Source: a virus
Lineage: Duplodnaviria; Caudoviricetes
Direction: 5' to 3' (one strand)
DNA: 64,000 nucleotides
IMG/VR virus record: IMGVR_UViG_3300035208_002098
Location: 96,001-160,000 of that record
Positions 1 to 56,390 of this stretch are shown one piece after another. Below the pieces are notes generated by a model. The model had not been told where the DNA came from, did not search any database, and saw only the letters and a list, made by a program, of their open reading frames with translations. A program made the translations under genes and the position numbers. How positions within the stretch are numbered: position 1 is the stretch's first letter; each line of letters begins with the position of its first letter.

Positions 1-4
1 TTTG

Positions 5-76
5 AGTCGATAATCAGAATCGAACTGACATCCTCAGTTTGGTAAACTGACGCACTAACCGTTGTGCTATATCGAC
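5..76 (-). tRNA. tRNA-Gly(ACC)
   Basis: Cloverleaf: GTCGATA/TATCGAC acceptor, TCAGT-TTACCAA-ACTGA anticodon arm, U73. Confidence 0.85.
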
Positions 77-78
77 AT

Positions 79-264
79 TTATTTTAAACCATCTTTTATT
101 AAAAATTTTAATTTTAATTTAGCTTTATCGTATTTAGCTTTAGTCTTTTCAAACTCTTCAGATGATACATTATCTTTAAAGTTTTTACTATCTAAACGTT
201 TCTTTAGAAATTCAACATATTTCTCTTCTTGACCTATTAAATCAATTTTTTTATTTTTACCCAT
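79..264 (-). CDS. small basic hypothetical protein
   Basis: 61 aa ORF between tRNAs. Confidence 0.6.
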   Translation of the reverse strand: MGKNKKIDLIGQEEKYVEFLKKRLDSKNFKDNVSSEEFEKTKAKYDKAKLKLKFLIKDGLK

Positions 265-281
265 AATTAAAAATTTTATTG

Positions 282-366
282 AGCCTTCTGTCAGATTCGA
301 ACTGACGTGTCATTTGCATGAACCGGGTTACAAATCCGGTATAATCGACCACTATATGAAGAAGGC
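282..366 (-). tRNA. tRNA-Thr(TGT), long variable arm
   Basis: GCCTTCT/AGAAGGC acceptor, loop TTTGTAA, V-arm TCAT-GCAA-ATGA. Confidence 0.85.
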
Positions 367-367
367 A

Positions 368-432
368 TGGTCGGAGGTAGCTTTTCCCATTCGTTCCGCT
401 TCAAAAGCTTACGGTTAACAATGGTACCCCCG
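368..432 (-). ncRNA. CCA-ended tRNA-like RNA with predicted pseudoknot
   Basis: CGGGGGTA/TACCTCCG stem followed by ACCA; inner hairpin CCATTGTT..CCG/CGGAAC.AATGG; loop GCTTTT pairs with downstream AAAAGC. Confidence 0.5.
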
Positions 433-434
433 TT

Positions 435-511
435 TGGAGCCACAAGAGGGACTCGAACCCCCAACACCCTGATTACAAGTCAGGTACTCTACCAATTAAA
501 GCTATTGTGGC
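435..511 (-). tRNA. tRNA-Thr(TGT)
   Basis: Canonical cloverleaf, loop CTTGTAA, encoded CCA. Confidence 0.93.
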
Positions 512-671
512 AATTATTTTACATCTATAAATTCAATAGATGTTATTTCAGAATTGTTTTGAATAGATTCAAAACTCTCATGTAATGTTTTATTTTTACA
601 CGATTCTAATATTTCACTTAACCAATGAAATGCTGATTTGTCTACTATTATTTTCATATTATGTTTTTTAG

Positions 672-743
672 TGCAGTAATTCGGACTTGAACCGAAAACC
701 CTCTCATTGGAAGTGAGACGCTCTTCATTGGAGCTATTACTGC
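672..743 (-). tRNA. tRNA-Gly(TCC)
   Basis: TCTCA-CTTCCAA-TGAGA anticodon arm. Confidence 0.9.
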
Positions 744-799
744 GTTATTTATTCTAAATCCTATGACATATATTCAATATCATGTTATTATTAATAATT

Positions 800-1063
800 A
801 AATAGATGACCGTAGCCAAGGTTCTGTTTTAATCTAACATTTATCTATATATCATATGATATATCCGGTTTTTCATTCCGGTGCCACTACCTGTCTATCA
901 TCGCAATCTGAGGACCCTTGCTAAGACTAATTTGTGTTGCATCCCATGTTGCAGTGGTATAACGTATAAATTAATATACTTCCACTTCTCAGAGAGATGC
1001 CTTGAACTTCCTCTTCACCACATTTAGTATTATGTGATAAAGCGTTAGAATGCCTGTCTATTT
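800..1063 (-). ncRNA. rnpB: RNase P RNA (compact, ~260 nt)
   Basis: GAGGAAGTTCAAGGC near the 5' end and AACAGAACCTTGGCTA near the 3' end form P4 with compensatory changes; AGATAAATG motif; terminal P1 AAATAGA/TCTATTT. Confidence 0.88.
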
Positions 1064-1064
1064 A

Positions 1065-1552
1065 TTATTTATTATTTTTTAATTGTTCTTTAATTTTATT
1101 ATCCCATAAATTAGTATCACGTAATTTAGTTAATCGTTTACAAAATTCTGATTCAGTTAATACTGTTTCACTTTGTTTATTTTTACCTATTGAATGTGTG
1201 AATACAGCATCATTAGTTGATAACAAATCTTTCTTAAAATTTTCATTAGTAAATAAAGCTTCGTATGCTCTATTTAATAATTCTTGGTATTCTTTAGATT
1301 TTCTCTGGAATGCTTCACCTTTCCACCATAATGTTTGTCCTGTTTTCCAAGCTTTATTACGACCACTACCTCGTTTCTTAGCACCAAACCCAACCAATTT
1401 ACAAACCTCAGCTTGAATAACTCATTCTCGAATTTAAAGGATTGTAATAACCCTTCCATTGATGCACATTCAACACCATCAAATATAAATTGTCTAGCCG
1501 TAAAATTACTTAGTCTACCAGCAACACCTTTATTATTTCCACCTATATCCAT
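1065..1552 (-). pseudogene. NADAR-family (T4 gp30.3-like) gene split by a 1-nt frameshift near 1415-1420
   Basis: ORF 1274-1552 (LSNF...SMEGLLQSFKF) continues in the other frame as IQAEVCKLVGFGAKKRG...TLWWKG...HSIG. Confidence 0.7.
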
Positions 1553-1618
1553 ATCATTATATTTTAATCAAAGTTACTACTTTTTATCTATTAAAACAAG
1601 TAATTAATACTATTTTTG

Positions 1619-1750
1619 TGACCCACGTTTGGAATCGAACCTAACACTTTTAATAAACTCATAAATGATATTTATTAAATTACCGAAGTCTTTTATTTGC
1701 TAGTAATACTCTTCCGAGCCCGTAACGATACCAACAGCAAGACGCAGACC
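1619..1750 (-). ncRNA. tRNA-like RNA with long insert
   Basis: T-loop GGTTCGATTCC, G-U-rich acceptor GGTCTGC/GTGGGTC, no canonical anticodon arm. Confidence 0.4.
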
Positions 1751-1760
1751 AATTTATTTG

Positions 1761-1857
1761 TGGGTCACAGGGGTATCGAACCCCACGTCATCTTATTCAC
1801 ATAAGATTTACCATGTATGTTATACTTTAACTCAACGTCAATCTCAATACGCAGCCC
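1761..1857 (-). ncRNA. tRNA-like RNA
   Basis: T-arm GGGG-TTCGATA-CCCC, acceptor GGGCTGC/GTGACCC, non-canonical core. Confidence 0.4.
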
Positions 1858-1863
1858 ATATTG

Positions 1864-1945
1864 TCCATCCGGTTGGATTCGAACCAACGCAACCCATATT
1901 AAAAGTATGGTGCCTCTCGCTTACGCTCCACTCGGCCACGGATGG
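1864..1945 (-). tRNA. tRNA-Lys(TTT), enlarged D-loop
   Basis: CCATA-CTTTTAA-TATGG; D-loop carries extra GCGTAAGC. Confidence 0.8.
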
Positions 1946-1954
1946 AAATTTTTG

Positions 1955-2039
1955 TGTATCCGGTGGGGCTCGAACCCACGTTGAACATACTGTTCCTACA
2001 TTAAAAGTGTAGAGCCTAAACCAACTCGGCCACAGATAC
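1955..2039 (-). tRNA. tRNA-Lys(TTT), long variable arm
   Basis: CTACA-CTTTTAA-TGTAG; V-arm GAACA-GTA-TGTTC. Confidence 0.85.
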
Positions 2040-2041
2040 AT

Positions 2042-2485
2042 TTATATTATGTCTTTATACCAATTAAATTGTTTAGCAGTTCTTCTCCTATGACAATTGG
2101 CACATCTAACATCACATTTTTTAATTTCTTCTAATATCACACCCCAAGAATACCCAGCATTAACCATATTACCAACACCATCTATTTTATCAACATTATC
2201 TTTATGGTCAAATTCTAATACAATAGGGTCTTTTTCACCACAATCAATACAATATGATTGTGATAGAACATCGAAATATTTTCTTTGGTTTTCTTTTCTA
2301 ATTCGTTTATTTCGTTCACCAATAATTATTTTATGTTTTTCTCTATTATCATTATAATATTCTTTAGATTTAAGATTACTACATTCACGACAAATATTAC
2401 TATGTCCATCTTTACGAGTTTTATTTTTATTAAAATCAGTTAATATCTTGATTTCTTTACATTTAGTACATATTTTAGTTTCCAT
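2042..2485 (-). CDS. HNH homing endonuclease with Zn fingers
   Basis: CxxC pairs, LEFDH...CANCHRRR. Confidence 0.85.
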   Translation of the reverse strand: METKICTKCKEIKILTDFNKNKTRKDGHSNICRECSNLKSKEYYNDNREKHKIIIGERNKRIRKENQRKYFDVLSQSYCIDCGEKDPIVLEFDHKDNVDKIDGVGNMVNAGYSWGVILEEIKKCDVRCANCHRRRTAKQFNWYKDII

Positions 2486-2544
2486 ATTTTTTCATTTAAT
2501 ATAATAAACTTTTAAACAAAAGTAAATGTTAAAAGCTATTGTTG

Positions 2545-2617
2545 TCACCCCAAAGAGACTTGAACTCTTGACTCCGATATTAAAAGTATCGTACTCTACC
2601 AACTGAGTTATGAGGTG
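2545..2617 (-). tRNA. tRNA-Lys(TTT)
   Basis: Canonical cloverleaf, CGATA-CTTTTAA-TATCG. Confidence 0.92.
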
Positions 2618-2705
2618 AAAAAGAAAGATGAATTTAAAGGAGGGATTAAGTTAGAAAAAATCCATCTCTCAAAGGATAACATTATCAGCACAATAATGTC
2701 AAGTG

Positions 2706-2791
2706 TATCGTATGTGGGATTCGAACCCACGAATCGATTACTCGAAGCCAGCTTGAAAAGCTGGTGACCTAGGCCGCTAGTCTAATACGAC
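2706..2791 (-). tRNA. tRNA-Glu(TTC), long variable arm
   Basis: CCAGC-TTTTCAA-GCTGG; V-arm TCGA-GTAA-TCGA. Confidence 0.85.
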
Positions 2792-2800
2792 ATAATATTG

Positions 2801-2872
2801 TAGCCCGTAGGGGAATCGAACCCCTGATTCTAGGTTGAAAACCTAACGACTTAACCGTTTGTCCAACGGGCC
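2801..2872 (-). tRNA. tRNA-Glu(TTC)
   Basis: Canonical cloverleaf. Confidence 0.92.
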
Positions 2873-2896
2873 ATTTAATAAAATTTATTTGATTTG

Positions 2897-2970
2897 TCAC
2901 ACATACCGGATTCGAACCGGTGATTTTTTGGTTGAAAACCAAACGTCCTAGGCCTCTAGACGAATGTGCG
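2897..2970 (-). tRNA. tRNA-Glu(TTC)
   Basis: Canonical cloverleaf. Confidence 0.92.
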
Positions 2971-3027
2971 AAATTGCGAGATAAACTCGCATTATTAAAG
3001 GGCAACCGGGTAGGTCGACATGTATAA

Positions 3028-3378
3028 TTACCCTTTAAAATAAGATGAATTAGCAAATTTAGCTTCTCTTGCAAAATCAGTATCATCGTGAACGTATTGA
3101 TTGAATTCTCTAGATTCTAATTGAACAATTGTTTCAACTTCCATAGTAAACATTAGAATTAATTTATCGTATTCTTCTGTTTTATCTACTGGTTGTATTA
3201 AATTTAAACGAATGTTTGTATCACCGTTATTAGCTTTTTTTAATAAGAATTTTAATTGTTTTAAAGCCTCTTCTTTATAATCGATTAATGCTTGTTGATA
3301 ATCAATTATATGTTGTTGTTTATTAGCTTTAATTTTTTCAATTAAGTCACTTTTGTTTACATTGATAATTCTACTCAT
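3028..3378 (-). CDS. hypothetical protein
   Basis: 116 aa ORF with plausible composition. Confidence 0.75.
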   Translation of the reverse strand: MSRIINVNKSDLIEKIKANKQQHIIDYQQALIDYKEEALKQLKFLLKKANNGDTNIRLNLIQPVDKTEEYDKLILMFTMEVETIVQLESREFNQYVHDDTDFAREAKFANSSYFKG

Positions 3379-3445
3379 AATTTTTATTTTTAATTTATGT
3401 TATTTTAAGAATAACAAAAATATATAATAAATTAAAAGATATCAA

Positions 3446-3844
3446 CTAAAAATTCACTTTTCTTTTATCAGTAACTAAAATATCATCATTTCTATCTAAT
3501 GTAATATATTCTAAATTTACTAATTCAAATTCTTTAAGATGTTCTATAACTTCATTAGCTGTAAATTCACTACAAGAATATATATCAAACTGAAATTTTT
3601 GTGGTGTTTCTGAGTCCCACACATGCATACTGGCATGTGATGTAGCTAAAGTAACAGTACCGGTTACACCTTCATTACCTAAATCATCAACATATACTGA
3701 TGTTGGTCCGGCCACAACTTTCATTCGTACTTTTTCAACTAATATACTTAACCATAAATTTAATTCTTTAACTGTTTTAGGTGCTTTTTTACATTCACCC
3801 TTACAAATAAAGTGTAGGTGATTTGGCTTGAAAATTTCATTCAT
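3446..3844 (-). CDS. S-adenosylmethionine decarboxylase proenzyme-like
   Basis: GVTGTVTLATSHASMHVW...DIYSC matches the SpeD/SpeH pyruvoyl cleavage motif. Confidence 0.8.
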   Translation of the reverse strand: MNEIFKPNHLHFICKGECKKAPKTVKELNLWLSILVEKVRMKVVAGPTSVYVDDLGNEGVTGTVTLATSHASMHVWDSETPQKFQFDIYSCSEFTANEVIEHLKEFELVNLEYITLDRNDDILVTDKRKVNF

Positions 3845-3906
3845 TTATTAAAATTATTACGATAATATTATTTAATAAATAAATATCAAGAAAACCATTA
3901 AAATTG

Positions 3907-3979
3907 TTGCGATAAAAGGATTCGAACCTTTGTTTGCGGTCTCCACGACCACCGTCCTGAACCACTAGACGATACCGCT
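3907..3979 (-). tRNA. atypical tRNA, anticodon TGG (Pro?)
   Basis: Cloverleaf with loop CGTGGAG (G33) and a 1-72 mismatch. Confidence 0.55.
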
Positions 3980-4076
3980 GAAACTCATTAAAATTTAGAC
4001 TGCATTCTTAACTTTTTTGAGATTGCTTAATATAATTCCGATATTTGCAGTTACGGTTTCATATCAAGTAATTTTG

Positions 4077-4157
4077 TGGGGCTGATGGGATTCGAACCCA
4101 CTAAGCGTAGCAGCGGTTTTACAGACCGCCTCAACTCTCCAACGTTGACGCATCCCC
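4077..4157 (-). tRNA. tRNA-Tyr(GTA)
   Basis: GCGGT-CTGTAAA-ACCGC. Confidence 0.88.
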
Positions 4158-4165
4158 AAATAGAG

Positions 4166-4247
4166 TGGGAGTAGTTGGACTCGAACCAACGAAGACCGAA
4201 GTCGAGGGATTTACAGTCCCTTGCAATTGCCGCTATGCGATACTCCC
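4166..4247 (-). tRNA. tRNA-Tyr(GTA)
   Basis: Canonical class II cloverleaf. Confidence 0.93.
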
Positions 4248-4253
4248 AAGTTA

Positions 4254-4392
4254 GAACAGGTTTGTCTTTTTGCGTTCTATTGCTCTACCAACTGAGCTAT
4301 ACCCCCAATATTAATATTTGTGGGGGCAATGGGATTCGAACCACATGACCCATAGATTTACCTAGCTTTTTATTTGCTGAATCAAACCTTTA
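4254..4392 (-). ncRNA. YrlA-like Y RNA (circularly permuted tRNA module)
   Basis: Order is T-arm, acceptor stem closed by a loop (TGCCCCCA..TGGGGGTA), then D-arm; ends pair AGGTTTG/CAAACCT; TTCAGCAA motif. Confidence 0.75.
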
Positions 4393-4397
4393 TCTAG

Positions 4398-4470
4398 TCG
4401 AGTATGCTGGCATCGAACCGACCAAGCGATGCCTCCAATGCACCGCTGCCTAAACCTTGGTCAATACTCG
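4398..4470 (-). tRNA. divergent tRNA-Pro(TGG)
   Basis: CGAGTAT/ATACTCG acceptor, GGTGC-ATTGGAG-GCATC. Confidence 0.7.
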
Positions 4471-4476
4471 TTAAAG

Positions 4477-4547
4477 TTGTCCTACTAAGATTCGAACTTA
4501 GAACAACGGTATCAAAAACCGTTGTGTTACCATTACACCATAGGACA
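4477..4547 (-). tRNA. tRNA-Gln(TTG)
   Basis: Canonical, ACGGT-TTTTGAT-ACCGT. Confidence 0.92.
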
Positions 4548-4562
4548 ATGTTTATTTTTTTG

Positions 4563-4647
4563 CAGACCCCGTAAGACTCGAACTTACAAACCAATTAAAG
4601 GCATTAGATTCAAAATCTAACGTGTTTACCAATTCCACCAGAGGTCT
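4563..4647 (-). tRNA. tRNA with Gln anticodon (TTG) on a Leu-like long-V-arm body
   Basis: D-arm GGTGGAATTGGTAAACAC, TTAGA-TTTTGAA-TCTAA, G73. Confidence 0.8.
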
Positions 4648-4694
4648 AAAATATTTTTTTTATTTTATAATTATATTAAATACCGTATTACTAA

Positions 4695-4895
4695 ATGATA
4701 TTTATTAGTATAATACTTAAAACAATGAAATTAAATTATTCTGATAAAGTTAAATTCCTTAGTGGTGAATACCAAGATAAAATTGGTACTTATGTTGACG
4801 AAAATTCTAGTGCTTTTTTAATTAAACTAGATACCCAATCTATTATTATAATAGTAAGTAAATATAATACTGAAACAATTATAGAAAAAATATAG
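4695..4895 (+). CDS. small hypothetical protein
   Basis: Plus-strand ORF after an ATATTTAT motif. Confidence 0.5.
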   Translation: MIFISIILKTMKLNYSDKVKFLSGEYQDKIGTYVDENSSAFLIKLDTQSIIIIVSKYNTETIIEKI

Positions 4896-4956
4896 AAACA
4901 GGATTGACGTTGTTTCAATTAAAATTTGATTTTGTTTATTGCTGAACCAATCCTTT
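4896..4956 (-). ncRNA. short Y-like RNA with Lys anticodon-loop mimic
   Basis: AGGATTG-GTTCAGCAA ... TCAA-ATTTTAA-TTGA ... CAATCCT-GT. Confidence 0.6.
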
Positions 4957-4965
4957 ATTCTATTG

Positions 4966-5050
4966 TCGAACTAGAGGGATTTGAACCCACAAACTAAGTT
5001 AATTACTCTTAGTACCACCTATGTACAGTATCACCGTAACAGTTAGCTCG
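4966..5050 (-). tRNA. atypical tRNA-Pro(AGG), long variable arm
   Basis: CGAGCTA/TAGTTCG, GTAC-ATAGGTG-GTAC, long variable region. Confidence 0.6.
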
Positions 5051-5056
5051 TTATTG

Positions 5057-5131
5057 TCGGGATGGTGAGATTCGAACTCACGAACCGAAGCTTCCAAGGC
5101 CCCGTTGTATAACCATCTGCATAACATCCCG
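5057..5131 (-). tRNA. tRNA-Pro(TGG)
   Basis: CGGGATG/CATCCCG, GGGGC-CTTGGAA-GCTTC. Confidence 0.88.
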
Positions 5132-5136
5132 TTTAG

Positions 5137-5207
5137 TCGAGTGATTTGGCATTCCACCAAATATACTAGGTCCCGATGACCACTGCACTATACTTGTGCT
5201 ACACTCG
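5137..5207 (-). tRNA. degenerate tRNA (Pro-like acceptor, anticodon uncertain)
   Basis: CGAGTG/CACTCG acceptor; non-canonical T and anticodon loops. Confidence 0.45.
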
Positions 5208-5236
5208 TTATTTTATTCCCAATATGTCAATGAAAA

Positions 5237-5965
5237 TTGGTTTTTGTAAAATATCTAGATATTTATAGATATATACAAATTATTATGATACCATTATACA
5301 CTGAAGAAGAATTTAAAACCGCCAAATCATTTGATGAATTATCATGCCAATGTTTAATTTGTGGTAAAACATTTAAACAAAAAAAATACATTGTAAAAAT
5401 GGCTTTAAGTCCAAAATATGAAAGGACTGGTGATTTTTGTTCACTTACATGTCAACAAAAATCTAATATAAAAAAAGATACATTTAAAATATTTAATTGT
5501 TGTAATTGCAATAAAGAAATTATAAAACAATCGTCAGCCAGTAAACGTCATAAAAATACTTTCTGTTCACATTCATGCTCTACAAAATATTTAAATTCAC
5601 ATAAAACTACCGGTACAAGACGTTCTAAATTAGAAATGTATGTTGAAGAACAACTTACATTACTTTACCCTAATCTAGATATTAAATATAATGATAAATC
5701 AGTTATTAATTCTGAATTAGATATCCACATACCATCACTTAACTTAGCATTCGAACTTAATGGTATATTCCATTATGAACCAATATTCGGTGTTAATAAA
5801 TTAGACCAAATACAAACTAATGATATATCTAAATCAAAAGCCTGTATAGATGCAAAGATTGATTTATGTATAATAGATACATCTGGTCATAAATATGTTA
5901 AACCTAAAACTAGTGAAAAATATCTTAATATTATAATTAAAATTATTAACACTAGATTAGCCTAA
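5237..5965 (+). CDS. Zn-finger + PD-(D/E)xK/Vsr-like putative homing endonuclease
   Basis: Repeated CxxC..FCS..C motifs; ELDIHIPSLNLAFELNGIFHY; paralog of 62643-63329. Confidence 0.8.
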   Translation: MVFVKYLDIYRYIQIIMIPLYTEEEFKTAKSFDELSCQCLICGKTFKQKKYIVKMALSPKYERTGDFCSLTCQQKSNIKKDTFKIFNCCNCNKEIIKQSSASKRHKNTFCSHSCSTKYLNSHKTTGTRRSKLEMYVEEQLTLLYPNLDIKYNDKSVINSELDIHIPSLNLAFELNGIFHYEPIFGVNKLDQIQTNDISKSKACIDAKIDLCIIDTSGHKYVKPKTSEKYLNIIIKIINTRLA

Positions 5966-5980
5966 CTTTTTAAAATTTAT

Positions 5981-5998
5981 CCAATATGTCAATGAACT
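5981..5998 (-). promoter_or_regulatory. boxA-like antitermination site (copies at 5219-5234, 14956-14968, 21342-21359, 54292-54310)
   Basis: AGTTCATTGACATATTGG recurs near the 5' end of each RNA operon. Confidence 0.7.
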
Positions 5999-6042
5999 TG
6001 TTTTTTTAATTCTATGTTTAGTCTATGAATTAATAACGGTCT

Positions 6043-6085
6043 AAAAACAAAAAACCCAATCTACATTTCTGAGGATTGGGTCTTT
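6043..6085 (-). terminator. attenuator terminator, tRNA operon 1
   Basis: AGACCCAATC/GATTGGGTTT hairpin followed by a T tract. Confidence 0.85.
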
Positions 6086-6114
6086 ATATTATTTTGAAAG
6101 AATACTCTAATTCT

Positions 6115-6201
6115 TTACATAAAATTATATAACATACCCAATCCGTTTTGGCCCTCGCCTTTCGGTTGTTTCGTTCCTTGATATGTTGTATACGTTTTCA
6201 T
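6115..6201 (-). CDS. leader peptide 1: MKTYTTYQGTKQPKGEGQNGLGMLYNFM
   Basis: 28 aa ORF between promoter repeat and terminator; codons 2-18 are only K,T,Y,Q,G,P,E. Confidence 0.88.
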   Translation of the reverse strand: MKTYTTYQGTKQPKGEGQNGLGMLYNFM

Positions 6202-6230
6202 TGTTTTAATTTTTATATTTTTAATATTCT

Positions 6231-6318
6231 ATTGTTTGTTTATAAATATACTGCAAAGATATGAAAAGTTTCAATACGAGTCAAGTATTTTCGCATTTAT
6301 TTTCAAATTATTTTTTAA
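6231..6318 (-). promoter_or_regulatory. tRNA-operon promoter repeat, copy 1
   Basis: ACTTGACTCGTATTGAAACTTTTCATATCTTTGCAGTATATTTATAA; TAnnTTTG element; near-identical at 21797-21880 and 54586-54678. Confidence 0.85.
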
Positions 6319-6333
6319 TGTGTTGATTTATAG

Positions 6334-6975
6334 CTATTTAATTTCTTTCATTTTATCTCTTAATATACAAGCTAATTCATATTCTTCATTTTTAACAGCG
6401 TCATCAAGTTGTTCTTGTAGAGATTTTTCTTTAATTGGTTCGATATCTGTTCTACTATCATTAAAATTAAGAATAAATTCTGTTGGGTTATCTAATATTA
6501 ATTCTTCAATAACTAAACCCTTATTTTCTTCTTCTTTCGTTAATTCTCTATGTCTAATTAAAACACCCTCACCAAGCACCCAAGTTTTTTCTTCAAATAA
6601 ACTTTCATCTTTTAAAACAATTTTAACACTTATTGGTTGACCTAATACATTACTTATTTTAGCATCTAATTCCCCATGTGTTATATTTTCTGTTGACCAA
6701 GCTTCAATTTGATTTTGTATTGATAATATCTCTGGTGGTGTCGTATTAAATTGCGACCCGTAGAATTCCATAAGTTTATTTATATATTCTTTATATTTAC
6801 TAGATATATGCTCATCGGTATCACCAGCATCACCACGAAATTTGTTTATATCATCTGGATTTTGGTTATTTGGTGTTTCACCTCGTTTACCAAAATCATG
6901 GAATAAAGGATTTGTATCATCATTACCTTTACCAAAAAACATATTACCAAATAAATCGAAAAAATTTTCATTCAT
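6334..6975 (-). CDS. hypothetical protein with C-terminal UVR motif
   Basis: LQEQLDDAVKNEEYELACILRDKM. Confidence 0.75.
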   Translation of the reverse strand: MNENFFDLFGNMFFGKGNDDTNPLFHDFGKRGETPNNQNPDDINKFRGDAGDTDEHISSKYKEYINKLMEFYGSQFNTTPPEILSIQNQIEAWSTENITHGELDAKISNVLGQPISVKIVLKDESLFEEKTWVLGEGVLIRHRELTKEEENKGLVIEELILDNPTEFILNFNDSRTDIEPIKEKSLQEQLDDAVKNEEYELACILRDKMKEIK

Positions 6976-7035
6976 AATCTATATTTTTAATTATACACAA
7001 ATTTAACACTTTTTTTTTAATTAAACAAGTAAAAC

Positions 7036-7175
7036 TATAGGTTTTTTATAATACCCTCAATAATTTTTTTTGCTTCATCATCAACATCAGACCCCTTTTT
7101 AATATTTTTTCTGTGTGGTATAAACCTCAAATTTTTAATATTCCCAATTGCTTCTGGTGGAATTTGATTCTTAAA
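7036..7175 (-). pseudogene. displaced 3' end of the HNH gene 8124-8612
   Basis: Translates NQIPPEAIGNIKNLRFIPHRKNIKKG...; paralogous to NQIPPEAIAHIDNLRFIYHTKNIKKG. Confidence 0.75.
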
Positions 7176-7932
7176 CTAAGTGTTTCCAACTTTTATATGT
7201 TACAATATTAAATACACTACTTTGTGAAATATTAAACATTTTAACTAACTCTTTTCTACTATAAGTCTTATCGATGTAATATTTTCTCATTAATATTACA
7301 TCACTATCAGTCAATTTTGACATTGAATGATTTTCACCGGTTGAGGCTTCCTTTATTTTATTAATAATATCGTCATTATGTTTTTTACCATACATACCAT
7401 TATTACTACCACTATTTTTATCGCTTATTTTTTCCTTAGTTATTGAATTATGATTCTTCCCTGACATACCAACATGATTAATTTTCATTAACTCAATAGT
7501 ATATTCACTTGCCTTTTTACCATAACATGGGTTTTTTGTACCTGAATATTTTAAACTTAAATCACGTTTGTATTCATCAGAATGAATATGATAACCACTA
7601 ATATATTTATTCCATGGTATAGAACCACATGAAAATCCATCGCCACCATGAGTCATATTTGTTAAATAAAAACCCCATGTTTTAAATTGAGATATCCAAT
7701 ATGTTTCCCAAAATTGCCATTCATTAATATCTACAACATCTATAACTTCTATTATTGGTTCTTTATTTTTATTTAATAATGAATTTACCCAAGCTTTTTT
7801 ATGTGATAAGGTAGAGTTTTTAGATTCGTTAATATGTCTTTCAAATCTAGTTTTAATATCACCGGTTTTACCAACATACCTAACCTGTTTTGTATTTGGG
7901 TCGGTTAAAGTATATATAAATATTTTATTCAT
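7171..7932 (-). CDS. GIY-YIG homing endonuclease with NUMOD3-like repeats
   Basis: FIYTL..RYVGKT..RFERH; GMYGKKH repeats. Confidence 0.88.
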   Translation of the reverse strand: MNKIFIYTLTDPNTKQVRYVGKTGDIKTRFERHINESKNSTLSHKKAWVNSLLNKNKEPIIEVIDVVDINEWQFWETYWISQFKTWGFYLTNMTHGGDGFSCGSIPWNKYISGYHIHSDEYKRDLSLKYSGTKNPCYGKKASEYTIELMKINHVGMSGKNHNSITKEKISDKNSGSNNGMYGKKHNDDIINKIKEASTGENHSMSKLTDSDVILMRKYYIDKTYSRKELVKMFNISQSSVFNIVTYKSWKHLV

Positions 7933-21335: not shown

Positions 21336-21367
21336 ATATTACCAATATTTCAATGAACTAAATCCAG

Positions 21368-21770: not shown

Positions 21771-21796
21771 TTTTATATTTTTTGTTTTATTACTAC

Positions 21797-21880
21797 TTGT
21801 TTGTTTATAAATATACTGCAAATATACGAAAAGTTTCAATACGAGTCAAGTATTTTCGCATTTATTTTTAAATTATTTTA
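21797..21880 (-). promoter_or_regulatory. tRNA-operon promoter repeat, copy 2
   Basis: Near-identical to 6231-6318. Confidence 0.85.
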
Positions 21881-21913
21881 CATTTATTTTTTAAAATGTT
21901 GATTACTAATACG

Positions 21914-44351: not shown

Positions 44352-44962
44352 TGGGTATGACACCAGAAGAATTAAAACGTAAGCGAAAAGAACGTTATGA
44401 CGCTAACGCTGAAGAATTAAGACGTAAAAGACGTGAATATTACTATAATAACAAAGAGAAATCAGCTGAATATAGTAAACAGTACCACGAAGTTAATCGT
44501 GATAAAAATCTAGAAGTTAAGAAAAAATATCGTGAAGCTAATAAAGAAAAAATAGCTGAAAGTAAAAAGATATGGGACACTAATAATCGTGATAGGATTA
44601 ATGAATACGTTACAAATAGGAAAAAATACGATAAATTATTTAAACTATCTGAAAACTATAGATGTGCTATAAATAAAGCTATTAATAGATTTGGTTACAC
44701 CAAAAAATCTAAAACCACTGAAATACTTGGTTGTACATTTGAGGAATTTAAAGCTTATATCGAATCTAAATTTGAATCATGGATGAATTGGTCCAACCAC
44801 GGATTGTATAATGGTGATTTTAATTATGGTTGGGATATTGACCATATAATACCACTTGCAACTGCAAAGACCGAAGATGATATAATAATGTTGAATCACT
44901 ATACCAATCTTCAGCCTTTATGTAGTCATATTAATAGAGATATTAAGAAAGATAATCTATAA
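44351..44962 (+). CDS. HNH homing endonuclease
   Basis: WDIDHIIPL...NHYTNLQPL. Confidence 0.85.
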   Translation: MGMTPEELKRKRKERYDANAEELRRKRREYYYNNKEKSAEYSKQYHEVNRDKNLEVKKKYREANKEKIAESKKIWDTNNRDRINEYVTNRKKYDKLFKLSENYRCAINKAINRFGYTKKSKTTEILGCTFEEFKAYIESKFESWMNWSNHGLYNGDFNYGWDIDHIIPLATAKTEDDIIMLNHYTNLQPLCSHINRDIKKDNL

Positions 44963-46088
44963 CTCGTTTATATAATTGTTTGTTATTGTATGTAACCATA
45001 TACTCTTTAATAGAATTATGTTTACCGTCATATAACCCAAAAAATAAACCGGTAAAATCACTAAACCCATTTTGTTTTGATATAGATAATACTATATTAG
45101 CTATTACTTTACGTTCAACAATAGTAGTAGATTGTGGTATATAATTAACTATATCTACCCAAGTATTTTCTAAATCATTAATGAAAACATCGTATTTACC
45201 TTTCAGTTCTAGCATTTCATCTTTTCTCTCAGGTACATAAACAAGGTATTCCTCAATTTCATTGGTTTTAATAACTTGCATTATTTCATATTGAGAAGAT
45301 TTAGATTTTAAATGATGTAAAGCGACATATGATGGAGTCTTCATTTTAACTCTATTAAAATTATCATCAACAATAACATAACCTTCAAAAAATGGGTCTG
45401 GCATATTCTCAAATGTTCTTCTAATAGCACCAATATCCATTGCATTTATATCAAATTGTTTAACCACTGGTACACGTAACGCCCAAATAATTTCATGTAA
45501 GTCATCGTATGACAACTCTTCTAAAGTTTCAAGGTTCCTAACACCTAATAATGTAAGTGAAGAAGTTTCATGTGGTTTAACAACTATATTATATGGGGTA
45601 GTTAACTCAAACGCATATGTAAAACCTTTTGTTAATACAGCTTCATGAAAATTAGGTACCATATTTTTAAGTGTAGTCCAAAATAATTTAGCGAATGTTG
45701 TACCAAATTTATTGTTTACTTCGCCATCAGCTTCTGGTGTACCTGTTGTACCAACTAACCATTGATTTTTATGCCAATCCCAATATAATTGAATTAAACT
45801 ACCATCAACTTTTTCTAAAATCTTCGCTGTATTCCAGTCTATTTTAGCTGCATGACCTTCTTCATGATTGAAGAATTTACGGAATGCCAATGACATAACT
45901 TTCCAAGTATCTCTTTCAAGGATAAGACCTCTACAGTCTTGAGTTTCTTCAAAAGCCATTGGTGATTCTAGTTGATTATATTTCAACAGAATCTTATTTT
46001 CACATACATTAGTTTTAAGCTTAAAAGTTTCAATTGCTTTCGCTAAACCATGTAATTTTATATATTTTACTATTGCTAATTCTTTCAT
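44943..46088 (-). CDS. Rnl1-like RNA ligase
   Basis: CRGLIL, FRKFFN, EKVDGSL, FEL, EGYVI, KMK. Confidence 0.88.
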   Translation of the reverse strand: MKELAIVKYIKLHGLAKAIETFKLKTNVCENKILLKYNQLESPMAFEETQDCRGLILERDTWKVMSLAFRKFFNHEEGHAAKIDWNTAKILEKVDGSLIQLYWDWHKNQWLVGTTGTPEADGEVNNKFGTTFAKLFWTTLKNMVPNFHEAVLTKGFTYAFELTTPYNIVVKPHETSSLTLLGVRNLETLEELSYDDLHEIIWALRVPVVKQFDINAMDIGAIRRTFENMPDPFFEGYVIVDDNFNRVKMKTPSYVALHHLKSKSSQYEIMQVIKTNEIEEYLVYVPERKDEMLELKGKYDVFINDLENTWVDIVNYIPQSTTIVERKVIANIVLSISKQNGFSDFTGLFFGLYDGKHNSIKEYMVTYNNKQLYKRVIDYLS

Positions 46089-53010: not shown

Positions 53011-53015
53011 ATTTG

Positions 53016-53100
53016 TCGTCTGGGTGAGATTTGAACTCACGTTGAGAATTAATCTCACAGCTTATCAGGCTGTTTTCTGCCACCACTCGAATACCAGACA
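53016..53100 (-). tRNA. tRNA-Ile(GAT), long variable arm
   Basis: ACAGC-CTGATAA-GCTGT, V-arm GAGA..TCTC. Confidence 0.82.
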
Positions 53101-54187: not shown

Positions 54188-54195
54188 ATATTTTG

Positions 54196-54284
54196 CACAT
54201 CGGTAGGGATTCGAACCCTCATCTAATCTTACGACCCTTAAGGACTGGGTTGGAGCCAGCTAGTCACGCCTAATGAGCCGATGT
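54196..54284 (-). tRNA. atypical tRNA-Trp(CCA), long variable region
   Basis: GCTGG-CTCCAAC-CCAGT. Confidence 0.65.
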
Positions 54285-54315
54285 GTATTTACCAATATGT
54301 CAAAGAACTTTGTTG

Positions 54316-54585: not shown

Positions 54586-54678
54586 ATTCTATTGTTTGTT
54601 TATAAATATACTGCAAAGATATGAAAAGTTTCAATACAAGTCAAGTATTTTCGCAATTATTTTCAATTTATTTTTTAA
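54586..54678 (-). promoter_or_regulatory. tRNA-operon promoter repeat, copy 3
   Basis: Near-identical to 6231-6318. Confidence 0.85.
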
Positions 54679-54700
54679 TTTGTTGATTATCAGACAATTA

Positions 54701-55228
54701 TTATTTTAAAAATTTAGCTGGTACGTGGTCAGTTAACCAGACACCGTTAGTTGATTGATAGAAAATAAACCCTTCGTTATACATTTCACCGGCTAATACT
54801 TCAAATATAATTGGTTTACCATGTCTACTACCGACATTTGTGGCCGTTTCAATATCATTACTTAAATGAACATAGTCTCTTTTTAATTTTAGTAATCCAT
54901 TTTCATTAATCGATTTAACACTATCAATACTAGTACCATGATATAATATATTAGGTGGTGTTTTACTTTCATATTGTAGGTCAATACCTAATGAATGGCC
55001 TTGACTAGCTCTGATTTTTGATTTATCATTATTAAACTCAAATCTTTTTTTATTATTAGTTCTAACAATAAACTCAAGTTCTTCAATGTCTATTTTTCTA
55101 CCATTTTTATTCATTTGTAATAGTAATTGGGTAACTTCTACCCAACCACTATTATCTAATTTTAAACCTATTGTTTCTGGTTTATGTCTTAATATAAGAC
55201 TTAAAAACCTACTATTATCGTTACTCAT
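54701..55228 (-). CDS. kptA: RNA 2'-phosphotransferase Tpt1/KptA
   Basis: SLILRH, KKRF, IRASQGHS, YHGT, VHLS. Confidence 0.93.
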   Translation of the reverse strand: MSNDNSRFLSLILRHKPETIGLKLDNSGWVEVTQLLLQMNKNGRKIDIEELEFIVRTNNKKRFEFNNDKSKIRASQGHSLGIDLQYESKTPPNILYHGTSIDSVKSINENGLLKLKRDYVHLSNDIETATNVGSRHGKPIIFEVLAGEMYNEGFIFYQSTNGVWLTDHVPAKFLK

Positions 55229-56390
55229 TTAACATTTTATTAAAGTTTTCTAATTCAAGTTCATGTATTTTTTTACCCATTTCAGGTCCGGGTTTAATAC
55301 CTAATTTTTCTATATCTTCACCGGTAACTGTAAATTTAAAATCTAAGAATTTATCAATTAATTCGATGTCCATATTGTTTAATTCAGCGAATCTAATAAC
55401 TTCATCATTAGAAATTTTAGATAAAATTTGTGATTTTTTCGCATTATAAACTAAATTTGGTTCAAAATATAAGAATGACATTAAGAAGTATATTTTACCT
55501 ATTTCATCACTAGTATATTTTAACTCAGCTAACACTTTTTTTACGAGTGCTGGTGAATTACCTTCAAATATTATGGCCATTAAAACAATTGGACTTTTAA
55601 CTTCAATTAAATTAAAATGTCTAATGTTTAAACCGGGAAAAATAAGTTTAAACATATCATAAACAAATAAACTATTTAAAAATTGTCTAACTGATTTTGC
55701 TGTTTTAACACCTTTAATAAATTCATCTCGAATTCTTTCTGGTGACACACCAATTAAGTTATTATCTTTAGTTATAGCACCAGCTGTTTTGGAGTTCATA
55801 TTAAAACCAAATCTAGCTGAAAATCTAATAGCTCTTAATTTTCTAAGTTTATCTTCATTAAATCTATCAATTGGTTCACCAACAGTTCTAATTTCGCTAA
55901 AACGTAAATCGTAAATACCATCAACTAAGTCAACTATTTGACTTTTTTCTATATCATAGAATAAAGCATTGATTGTTAAATCTCTTCTAAGTACATCCTT
56001 TTCTATAGTTGAGAATATAACTTCATCAGGTCTTCTTGAGTCGGTATAATCACCATCTTCTCTGAATGTCGCAATTTCATATTCGTCATTACCAGTAATA
56101 ACATTAATAACACCAAATGCTTTACCGGTTTCCAAGATATTAGTAACAAATGGTTGACCTTTAAGAATTTCAATTATTTTATCTGGTATTGCATTTGTAG
56201 CTAAATCCCAATCTTTTGGTTTTAACCCTAAATATGCATCACGAACTGAACCACCGACTAGGAATAAGTCAAACCCAAATGTTTTAAAAACTTTATTGAT
56301 TTTTATAACATCTTCTGGTAAATCTATTTTAAAATCTAATCTTGTTTCCATTTTATTGTTCTTTTTAATTAGGATACAAAGATAACACAA
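55221..56390 (-). CDS. cca: CCA-adding tRNA nucleotidyltransferase
   Basis: VGGSVRD, KDWDLAT, RRDLTINA, EDKLR.LRAIRF; most tRNAs here lack an encoded CCA. Confidence 0.88.
   Translation of the reverse strand: MCYLCILIKKNNKMETRLDFKIDLPEDVIKINKVFKTFGFDLFLVGGSVRDAYLGLKPKDWDLATNAIPDKIIEILKGQPFVTNILETGKAFGVINVITGNDEYEIATFREDGDYTDSRRPDEVIFSTIEKDVLRRDLTINALFYDIEKSQIVDLVDGIYDLRFSEIRTVGEPIDRFNEDKLRKLRAIRFSARFGFNMNSKTAGAITKDNNLIGVSPERIRDEFIKGVKTAKSVRQFLNSLFVYDMFKLIFPGLNIRHFNLIEVKSPIVLMAIIFEGNSPALVKKVLAELKYTSDEIGKIYFLMSFLYFEPNLVYNAKKSQILSKISNDEVIRFAELNNMDIELIDKFLDFKFTVTGEDIEKLGIKPGPEMGKKIHELELENFNKMLNE

Follow-up and report, generated by a model that had tools for sequence, protein, structure and literature searches.

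tRNA genes are normally viewed as controlled at their promoters, through growth rate and the stringent response. Phages carry clusters of such genes, for example the T4 tRNA region and the arrays of jumbo phages, and phage tRNA arrays are regarded as constitutively co-expressed cargo. The translation machinery is placed under a leader-peptide attenuator in the pheM-pheST operon of Escherichia coli, which encodes an aminoacyl-tRNA synthetase. Among the enterobacterial attenuators, which also include trpL, hisL, leuL and pheL, some are multivalent: the ilvGMEDA leader responds to Leu, Val and Ile, and thrL to Thr and Ile (see also Elf & Ehrenberg 2005, PMC1183508). Here we analyze a stretch of 64,000 nucleotides (nt), called the window below, that corresponds to bases 96001-160000 of the 248,412-bp virus record IMGVR_UViG_3300035208_002098. 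All positions are window coordinates, and all features of the locus lie on the - strand unless stated otherwise. The segment 6043-6318, designated unit 1, precedes an array of phage tRNA genes, and an earlier note based on its letters had proposed it to be an attenuator responding to Lys, Thr, Tyr, Gln, Gly, Pro and Glu (K/T/Y/Q/G/P/E). We consider it likely, from the sequence and from folding models, that unit 1 is a trp-operon-type, ribosome-mediated transcription attenuator gating a phage tRNA operon. The proposal finds support in the promoter, the leader open reading frame (ORF), its matched codons, the exclusive helices, the terminator, and the paralogues and orthologues of the unit. Like the enterobacterial attenuators, unit 1 has a short promoter-proximal ORF with regulatory codons, an RNA that can form either helices 1:2 and 3:4 or helix 2:3, and a terminator placed before the structural genes. 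The predicted behavior is also similar, in that a stalled ribosome would select the antiterminator and more than one amino acid would be sensed.

Results

The leader peptide matches the downstream tRNA array

The leader ORF starts with ATG and comprises 28 codons and a stop (6115-6201), reading MKTYTTYQGTKQPKGEGQNGLGMLYNFM followed by the stop codon. Its regulatory codons are codons 2 to 18 (KTYTTYQGTKQPKGEGQ). All 17 specify residues of the set {K,T,Y,Q,G,P,E}, and each of the seven occurs at least once, as the earlier note had claimed for the isotypes encoded downstream. This match is far beyond what amino-acid usage predicts: the set has a frequency of 0.387 in the genome, which gives a binomial probability of 9.8e-8 for 17 of 17. 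The unit-1 leader is also the sole frame with 17 of 17 among the 2,732 ATG frames of at least 22 codons in the 248-kb genome, the runner-up reaching 13. By standard wobble rules, applied by hand, the anticodons present in the array can read all 17 codons. Several leader codons are rare in the phage's own genes (ACG 6%, GGC 3%, CCG 9% and GAG 13%), and some of them fall within paired segments of the RNA. The start codon has A at -3 and at -11 to -13, the same context as that of the Shine-Dalgarno-less genes of this genome.

Predicted folding of the leader RNA

An intrinsic terminator is located downstream of the leader (6043-6081). It was found by a custom scan, a standard scan having missed the hairpin through its loop limit. 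The terminator comprises region 3 (ACCCAATCC, 6081-6073), region 4 (GATTGGGT, 6061-6054) and a T-tract (6053-6043). Its hairpin, ACCCAATC/GATTGGGT, has an 8-bp G+C-rich stem followed by TTTTTTGTTTTT down to 6043, and a folding energy of -12.7 to -14.6 kcal/mol. Two further segments belong to the leader ORF itself. Region 1 (TATACAACATATC, codons 4 to 8, 6180-6192) is the 5' strand of an anti-antiterminator and is paired in both the minimum-free-energy and the centroid folds. Region 2 (6126-6145) is, according to the folds and the duplex energy, a partner of either region 1 or region 3, and includes GGATTGGGT (6144-6136). The earlier note had stated that positions 6136-6144 are exactly complementary to the 5' strand of the terminator. 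We confirmed that GGATTGGGT is the exact complement of ACCCAATCC; the duplex has an energy of -15.0 kcal/mol, a value matched by none of 2000 shuffles of the ORF.

Taken from the ATG to the T-tract, the leader RNA is more stably folded than any of 200 shuffled sequences (z = -3.8). In the full-length centroid, region 1 (TATACAACATATC) and region 2 (CGGATTGGGTATGTTATATA) form a long hairpin, which is accompanied by a hairpin over the stop codon and by the terminator. If the sequence is truncated immediately upstream of the terminator's 3' arm, the 2:3 helix becomes the minimum-energy fold instead. Folding with and without ribosome masking, a check that the earlier note had suggested, gave a dependence on ribosome position: with a 28-nt mask, the complete 2:3 helix forms in silico when the A site is at codons 2 to 16, and is lost at codons 17 to 27. 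For a ribosome at the stop codon, the model gives an ambiguous outcome. The predicted folding is that of a mutually exclusive set of 1:2, 2:3 and 3:4 helices, following the four-segment logic of trpL. The hairpin over the stop codon (AAAGAAT/ATTCTTT, 6096-6118) has a predicted counterpart of different sequence in every orthologue, and could act as a pause hairpin or as a loop-closing hairpin. No T-box or other cis-regulatory Rfam model matched 6043-6318 at E<=1, so the region does not qualify as a T-box riboswitch.

Conservation of unit 1 in related phages

We searched for relatives of unit 1 by protein searches followed by tracing to the encoding contigs. Searching with a profile built on the upstream UVR-motif protein uncovered contigs of uncultured phages in five other metagenomic samples, namely L005, L006, L009, L010 and L012. 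Each of them retains the promoter core, the terminator and a leader of 28 to 30 codons in which all seven isotypes appear, with the residues in a different order. The respective leader peptides are MKKYTTYQGTKQPKGEGQNGLGMLYNFM (L005), MRTYTTYQGKQQEPKGTSLNGLDMLYNLT (L006), MRTYTTYQGKQEPKGTSHSGLDMLYNLT (L009), MRSHITYQPTEGKQPKGEGQFGLGMLYTLT (L010) and MRTYTTYQGKQQEPKGTSLNGLDMLYHLT (L012). The four contigs that are long enough (L006, L009, L010 and L012) also keep the boxA-like motif described below and the tRNA-Pro/Gln genes; where the contigs go on, the next genes are tRNA-Pro, Pro, Gln and Gln. The neighboring protein of these orthologues is 30-37% identical to that of the window.

The leaders differ in length by in-frame indels of 3 or 6 nt, and synonymous changes are found among them (TTA>CTG, ACG>ACT, AAG>AAA and CAA>CAG). 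Between the window and L005, a single position of 87 differs in the ORF (a Thr to Lys change, within the set) and none in the terminator, compared with 7 of about 33 in the intervening spacer. Over the six sequences, 93-97% of the helix positions are paired (96% for the 1:2 helix and 93% for the 2:3 helix). The terminator stem is invariant in all six while its loops vary, and the three-stage fold picture was obtained for five of the six.

Other searches returned nothing further. Neighboring-protein searches of viral contigs and a profile search of metagenome contigs (profile A1) gave no confirmed relatives, a degenerate pattern of the leader C-terminus had no match in viral contigs, and blastn of window positions 4800-7200 found no match among GenBank phages. 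Contigs L004 and L008 end before the region and are uninformative.

Two paralogous units cover the remaining amino acids

The same genome harbors two further units of this kind. In unit 2, the leader (21770-21663) precedes tRNA genes for Cys, Val, Leu (four), Asp (three), Phe and Ala, and 17 of its 23 regulatory residues belong to C/V/L/D/F/A. In unit 3, the leader (54562-54470) precedes Asn, Trp, Ser, His, Ile, Met and Arg tRNA genes, and all 21 residues belong to N/W/S/H/I/M/R. The three leader and array sets are disjoint and sum to all 20 amino acids (7 + 6 + 7).

The terminator sequences differ from unit to unit, and each ORF contains its own matching antiterminator segment 6 to 7 codons before the stop; covariation of antiterminator with terminator is thus present between units. 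Pairing with the cognate terminator arm has an energy of -15.0 kcal/mol in unit 1, -15.6 in unit 3 and -13.3 in the unit 3 of a related contig, L002, with 0 to 2 of 2000 shuffles as good; unit 2 is weaker, at -10.1 kcal/mol. In a matrix of all segments against all arms, the cognate arm is the best partner for units 1 and 3 and for L002, and not clearly the best for unit 2. The L002 orthologue of unit 3, whose Tpt1 is 65% identical to that of the window, has the leader MKTINIHSIHNNSWNIRRSNDNGSGMFIVT followed by Trp, Ser, His, Ile, Met, Asn and Arg tRNA genes. Its terminator, ACCGAC/GTCGGT, differs from that of unit 3 in the window and is accompanied by a matching antiterminator, GGGTCTGGT.

The closest relative, L001 (Tpt1 83% identical), is also uninformative, as it ends 138 nt after Tpt1. 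This terminal sequence (7007-7144) is unrelated to the unit-3 promoter of the window and could reflect an insertion or rearrangement. Genes for a CCA-adding enzyme, the RNA 2'-phosphotransferase Tpt1 and an Rnl1-like RNA ligase are found directly upstream of, or near, unit 3 (54701-56390 and 44943-46088, - strand).

Promoter, upstream block and probable host

In the segment 6228-6318, an A/T-rich upstream stretch accompanies the promoter and the first part of the 5' untranslated region (UTR). This block is present in exactly three copies in the genome, as determined by motif search (6228-6318, 21793-21890 and 54588-54690), one in each attenuator unit, and the copies are near-identical over about 90-120 nt. 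Such near-identity within one genome suggests concerted evolution or a shared regulator site. An exact-pattern scan of viral contigs for the block gave no match. The block contains a Bacteroidota-type promoter, TTG-N20-TATCTTTG (6254-6284), from which transcription would start near 6247. The orthologues keep the core TTG-N20-TA(T/n)(C/A)TTTG, and the spacer between the boxes diverges, for example in L005.

A small hairpin is found in the 5' UTR before the unit-1 leader of L006 (~1556-1575), L009 (~813-830) and L012 (~5277-5293), and is not present in the window copy. Its arms differ between the orthologues and are complementary in each (GGGG..CCC, GGGTG..ACCC and GACC..GGTC).

The 248,412-bp record has a G+C content of 27.7% and encodes 48 tRNA genes, a tmRNA and a tRNA(CUA). 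T4-like markers are present, namely gp30.3, a Seg-like GIY-YIG endonuclease and an Rnl1-like RNA ligase. Four features make it very probable that the phage infects a member of the Bacteroidota. A Shine-Dalgarno sequence precedes 2% of 234 ORFs, which is the random rate, and starts are A-rich at the positions given above for the leader. The promoter pattern TTG-N18-21-TAnnTTTG has 91 matches on the - (coding) strand vs 15 in shuffled sequences. The phage Tpt1 is nearest to proteins of Flavobacteriales and Sphingobacteriales (~60% identity). Finally, the tRNA arrays share an identical 17-nt motif with the rRNA operons of Bacteroidota.

The tRNA operon and its boxA-like motif

The array gated by unit 1 extends from 5131 to 4 and past the window edge, with small ORFs interspersed among the tRNA genes. 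Its order is Pro, Gln (two), Tyr (two), Pro, Glu (three), Lys (two), Gly, Thr (two) and Gly, followed past the edge by Gly(GCC) and Thr(GGU). Two members are outside the leader set: a questionable Trp-like prediction at 1863-1945, which scores 32 bits, lacks U33 and has a weak D arm, and the suppressor tRNA(CUA). Our custom scan of the - strand from 6043 to window coordinate -4856 detected no strong intrinsic terminator. Transcription could therefore run for about 11 kb, through all the K/T/Y/Q/G/P/E tRNA genes to the suppressor tRNA.

Many isotypes occur as pairs in which one tRNA is canonical (72-76 nt) and the second is 82-90 nt long, with an extra arm though not class II. Examples of these long-armed tRNAs include Lys, Glu, Thr, Gln, Ile, Trp, Asn and Arg (1954-2039, 2705-2791, 281-366, 4562-4647, 53015-53100, 54195-54284 and others).

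A boxA-like motif, TTCATTGACATATTGG, lies directly 3' of the terminator (5981-5996), where it was recognized by its identity to a spacer motif of rRNA (rrn) operons. A motif search found a second copy about 90 nt before tRNA-Pro (5219-5234). The motif, G(T/C)TC(A/T)TTGAC(A/G)TATTGG, is present in every tRNA array, with a single occurrence each in array 2 (21342-21357) and array 3 (54292-54307). It also occurs in L002 (~8833), L006 (~1766) and L009 (~1011), and follows the terminator in L006, L009, L010 and L012. By exact search, the 17-mer is present in more than 120 genomes, mostly Bacteroidota. In all five loci that were checked, it is positioned in the 16S-23S spacer, between the spacer tRNAs and the 23S gene. 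This is where the spacer boxA sits in rrn operons. Because the identical 17-mer occupies this position, the array motif can be read as borrowed, and the sequence match suggests that it is an rrn-type boxA antitermination site taken over by the phage. Placed after a conditional terminator, such a site would guard a long untranslated array against premature termination. Two other assignments of TTCATTGACATATTGG, as a sigma-70 -35 element and as an endonuclease target, were dropped in favor of boxA after the rrn-spacer matches were found.

The terminator and tRNA-Pro are about 900 nt apart in this genome. This interval contains a homing-endonuclease gene on the opposite strand (5237-5965, + strand; PHROG 559, 9084 and 3339), which is flanked by the two boxA-like copies as a 16-bp duplication. 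In L006, L009 and L012, there is no endonuclease gene and a single copy of the motif, and the distance from terminator to tRNA-Pro is about 70-300 nt, made up of boxA and spacer. The endonuclease gene is thus an insertion. Relatives have other endonuclease genes at nearby sites, at 3340-3948 in L005 and after tRNA-Pro in L006. Between boxA and tRNA-Pro, a segment of about 85 nt beginning with GTAGCACAAGTATAGTGCAG is conserved (window 5131-5218, - strand; L010 ~5640-5715). It was not called as a tRNA and may be a tRNA-like or Y-RNA-like RNA.

The earlier note had also counted an RNase P RNA at 800-1063 as part of this operon, provided that transcription reaches it, and our searches did not bear out such an RNA. 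At E<=1, no Rfam model of any kind matched 800-1063 and no RNase P model matched positions 1-6400, and RF00010 had no match in the whole genome at E<=10; in a control, the same model matched 11 of 14 genomes. By eye, 800-1063 (- strand) has a CR-I-like segment (GAGGAAGTTCAAGGC), a CR-V-like segment (ACAGAACCTTGGCTACGGTCA) and complementary ends (AATAGA/TCTATT), and resembles a shrunken RNase P RNA. The E. coli M1 RNA served as the standard for this likeness.

Discussion

Proposed mechanism

Since the leader is spelled in the seven isotypes of its array and is followed by a switchable stop, the phage probably makes the unit-1 tRNAs only when ribosomes decode the leader codons slowly. We infer leader translation, stalling, readthrough and the role of boxA from the sequence and from the modeled folds. 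Host RNA polymerase would start at the Bacteroidota-type promoter and transcribe the 28-codon leader. If codons 2 to 18 were decoded fast, the ribosome would enter region 2, the 3:4 terminator would form and transcription would stop at ~6043-6053. If no ribosome were loaded, regions 1 and 2 would pair and the terminator would likewise form. If any of the seven aminoacyl-tRNAs were scarce, the ribosome would stall on region 1, leaving region 2 (GGAUUGGGU) to pair with region 3 (ACCCAAUCC); the terminator would then not form and the polymerase would continue. It would next pass the host-type rrn boxA, which would attract the antitermination factors shielding long untranslated operons, and would then transcribe the array. 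The outcome would be negative feedback on tRNA supply, with units 2 and 3 predicted to act likewise on the other two arrays.

Several observations weigh against this interpretation. First, each isotype occurs 1 to 4 times in the unit-1 leader and never in runs, so sensitivity to mild starvation may be low. Second, a ribosome at the stop codon, with a 28-nt footprint, leaves GGAUUGGGU just free; termination in the replete state would therefore depend on timing, on steric hindrance or on re-formation of the 1:2 helix. Third, the 2:3 helix is more stable than the 1:2 helix in the truncated RNA even without a ribosome. As 2:3 is favored before region 4 exists, the untranslated default would be set by folding kinetics. 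Fourth, the unit-1 helices hardly vary, with a single double change among 30 pairs and no such change in 2:3, so that within unit 1 there is conservation without covariation; in three orthologues, moreover, region 2 has a G>A that is not compensated. Finally, promoter-like sites are present within the array (3445-3415 and 1599-1569), and the distal tRNAs could thus be partly independent of the attenuator; readthrough in this genome must also traverse about 750 nt antisense to the inserted endonuclease gene.

Alternative explanations

The alternative that fares best, which we nevertheless regard as unlikely, is that unit 1 is a real attenuator sensing the general status of translation, such as ribosome availability, transcription-translation coupling or global amino-acid starvation, and not the seven tRNAs. 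The mixture of seven isotypes without single-codon runs fits such a sensor, as any slowing of elongation would favor the 2:3 helix, and the use of one promoter block for three units suggests common control. A general sensor would however have no need for three leaders with disjoint sets, each matching its own array, nor for the retention of seven isotypes despite reshuffling in five lineages.

A second alternative is that the terminator responds to a trans-acting factor (an RNA-binding protein of the phage or the host, or a small RNA) or to the nascent peptide, through its C-terminal G-L-G/D-M-L-Y-x-x-x, instead of tRNA-limited stalling. The C-terminal residues are indeed conserved as amino acids, including through the synonymous TTA>CTG change, and G-M-(L/F)-x-N-(F/L) is common to units 1 and 3. 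Pairing between regions 1 and 2 however accounts for much of this conservation, searches of the region with riboswitch and T-box models gave no match, and the match between codons and isotypes would be left unexplained. We find this possibility very improbable.

It is hardly credible that the hairpin and T-tract simply end the upstream gene (6334-6975), or that they serve the convergent endonuclease gene as a bidirectional terminator, with the ORF present by chance. In favor of this view, the hairpin has a + strand fold as well (-13 kcal/mol), some 80 nt past the endonuclease stop, and L007 has a plain terminator and no leader after the orthologous upstream gene. Against it, the ORF is separated from the upstream gene by a conserved promoter, the leader is the genome's single 17/17 outlier, orthologues without the endonuclease gene retain ORF and terminator, the + strand T-tract is poor (CTTTATATTATTTTG), and units 2 and 3 directly precede their tRNAs with no other promoter between.

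Attenuation by tRNA-limited stalling thus remains our preferred interpretation of unit 1. A broader reading, which we put forward only tentatively, is that the three attenuators form a surveillance circuit that audits the decoding of the 20 amino acids in three groups. It might induce the matching tRNA blocks when host tRNAs are depleted, by host shut-off or by an anticodon-nuclease defense. The CCA-adding enzyme, Tpt1 and Rnl1-like ligase genes beside unit 3 might then belong to the same counter-defense program, with boxA borrowed for passage through the arrays.

If confirmed, attenuation of this kind would provide a direct feedback, resolved by isotype, from decoding speed to the transcription of tRNA genes, the first of its type. 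It would also indicate that attenuation logic works in Bacteroidota, which are without Shine-Dalgarno-led initiation, and would account for the fixed amino-acid groups in which the tRNAs of these phages are arranged. Unit 1 would offer a natural seven-input sensor of aminoacyl-tRNA supply, and would bear on how phages handle codon-usage mismatch and tRNA-targeting defenses.

Comparison with known systems

Our full-text literature search found no account of tRNA genes under leader-peptide attenuation, whether in phages or in cells. Judged from sequence and modeling, unit 1 most likely represents a known mechanism applied to a new target class, the tRNA genes, with a new multivalent layout. Unlike the enterobacterial attenuators, the phage unit would gate tRNA genes and not biosynthetic enzymes, so that the feedback would act on tRNA and not on amino-acid supply. 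Its leader would sense seven isotypes through 1 to 4 scattered codons each, in place of runs. It is phage-borne and present in three copies that jointly cover 20 amino acids, and its region 2 is contained in the ORF, at a distance of 6 codons from the stop. The setting differs as well, with a Bacteroidota host, no Shine-Dalgarno sequence and a TAnnTTTG promoter.

The pheM-pheST operon shares with unit 1 the use of leader-peptide attenuation for the translation machinery rather than for amino-acid synthesis. Unlike the phage unit, it responds to a single amino acid, and its target is a protein-coding operon. T-box riboswitches are similar in that readthrough of a terminator is tied to the state of specific tRNAs, via the choice between antiterminator and terminator. 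They recognize uncharged tRNA by direct binding, using a specifier codon and the T-box sequence, and do so independently of translation, whereas the phage unit has an ORF and no T-box match.

The phage motif GTTC(A/T)TTGAC(A/G)TATTGG is the 17-mer of the Bacteroidota 16S-23S spacer, which likens it to the boxA of rrn operons and NusB-NusE antitermination. Unlike rrn boxA, it is located in a tRNA operon, downstream of a conditional terminator, where its presumed function would be exerted. Lastly, the arrays are reminiscent of T4-type clusters, as they belong to a T4-like phage and consist of clustered tRNA genes interspersed with homing endonucleases. For the clusters of T4 and of jumbo phages we found no description of leader-peptide control, the feature that the arrays described here are predicted to possess.

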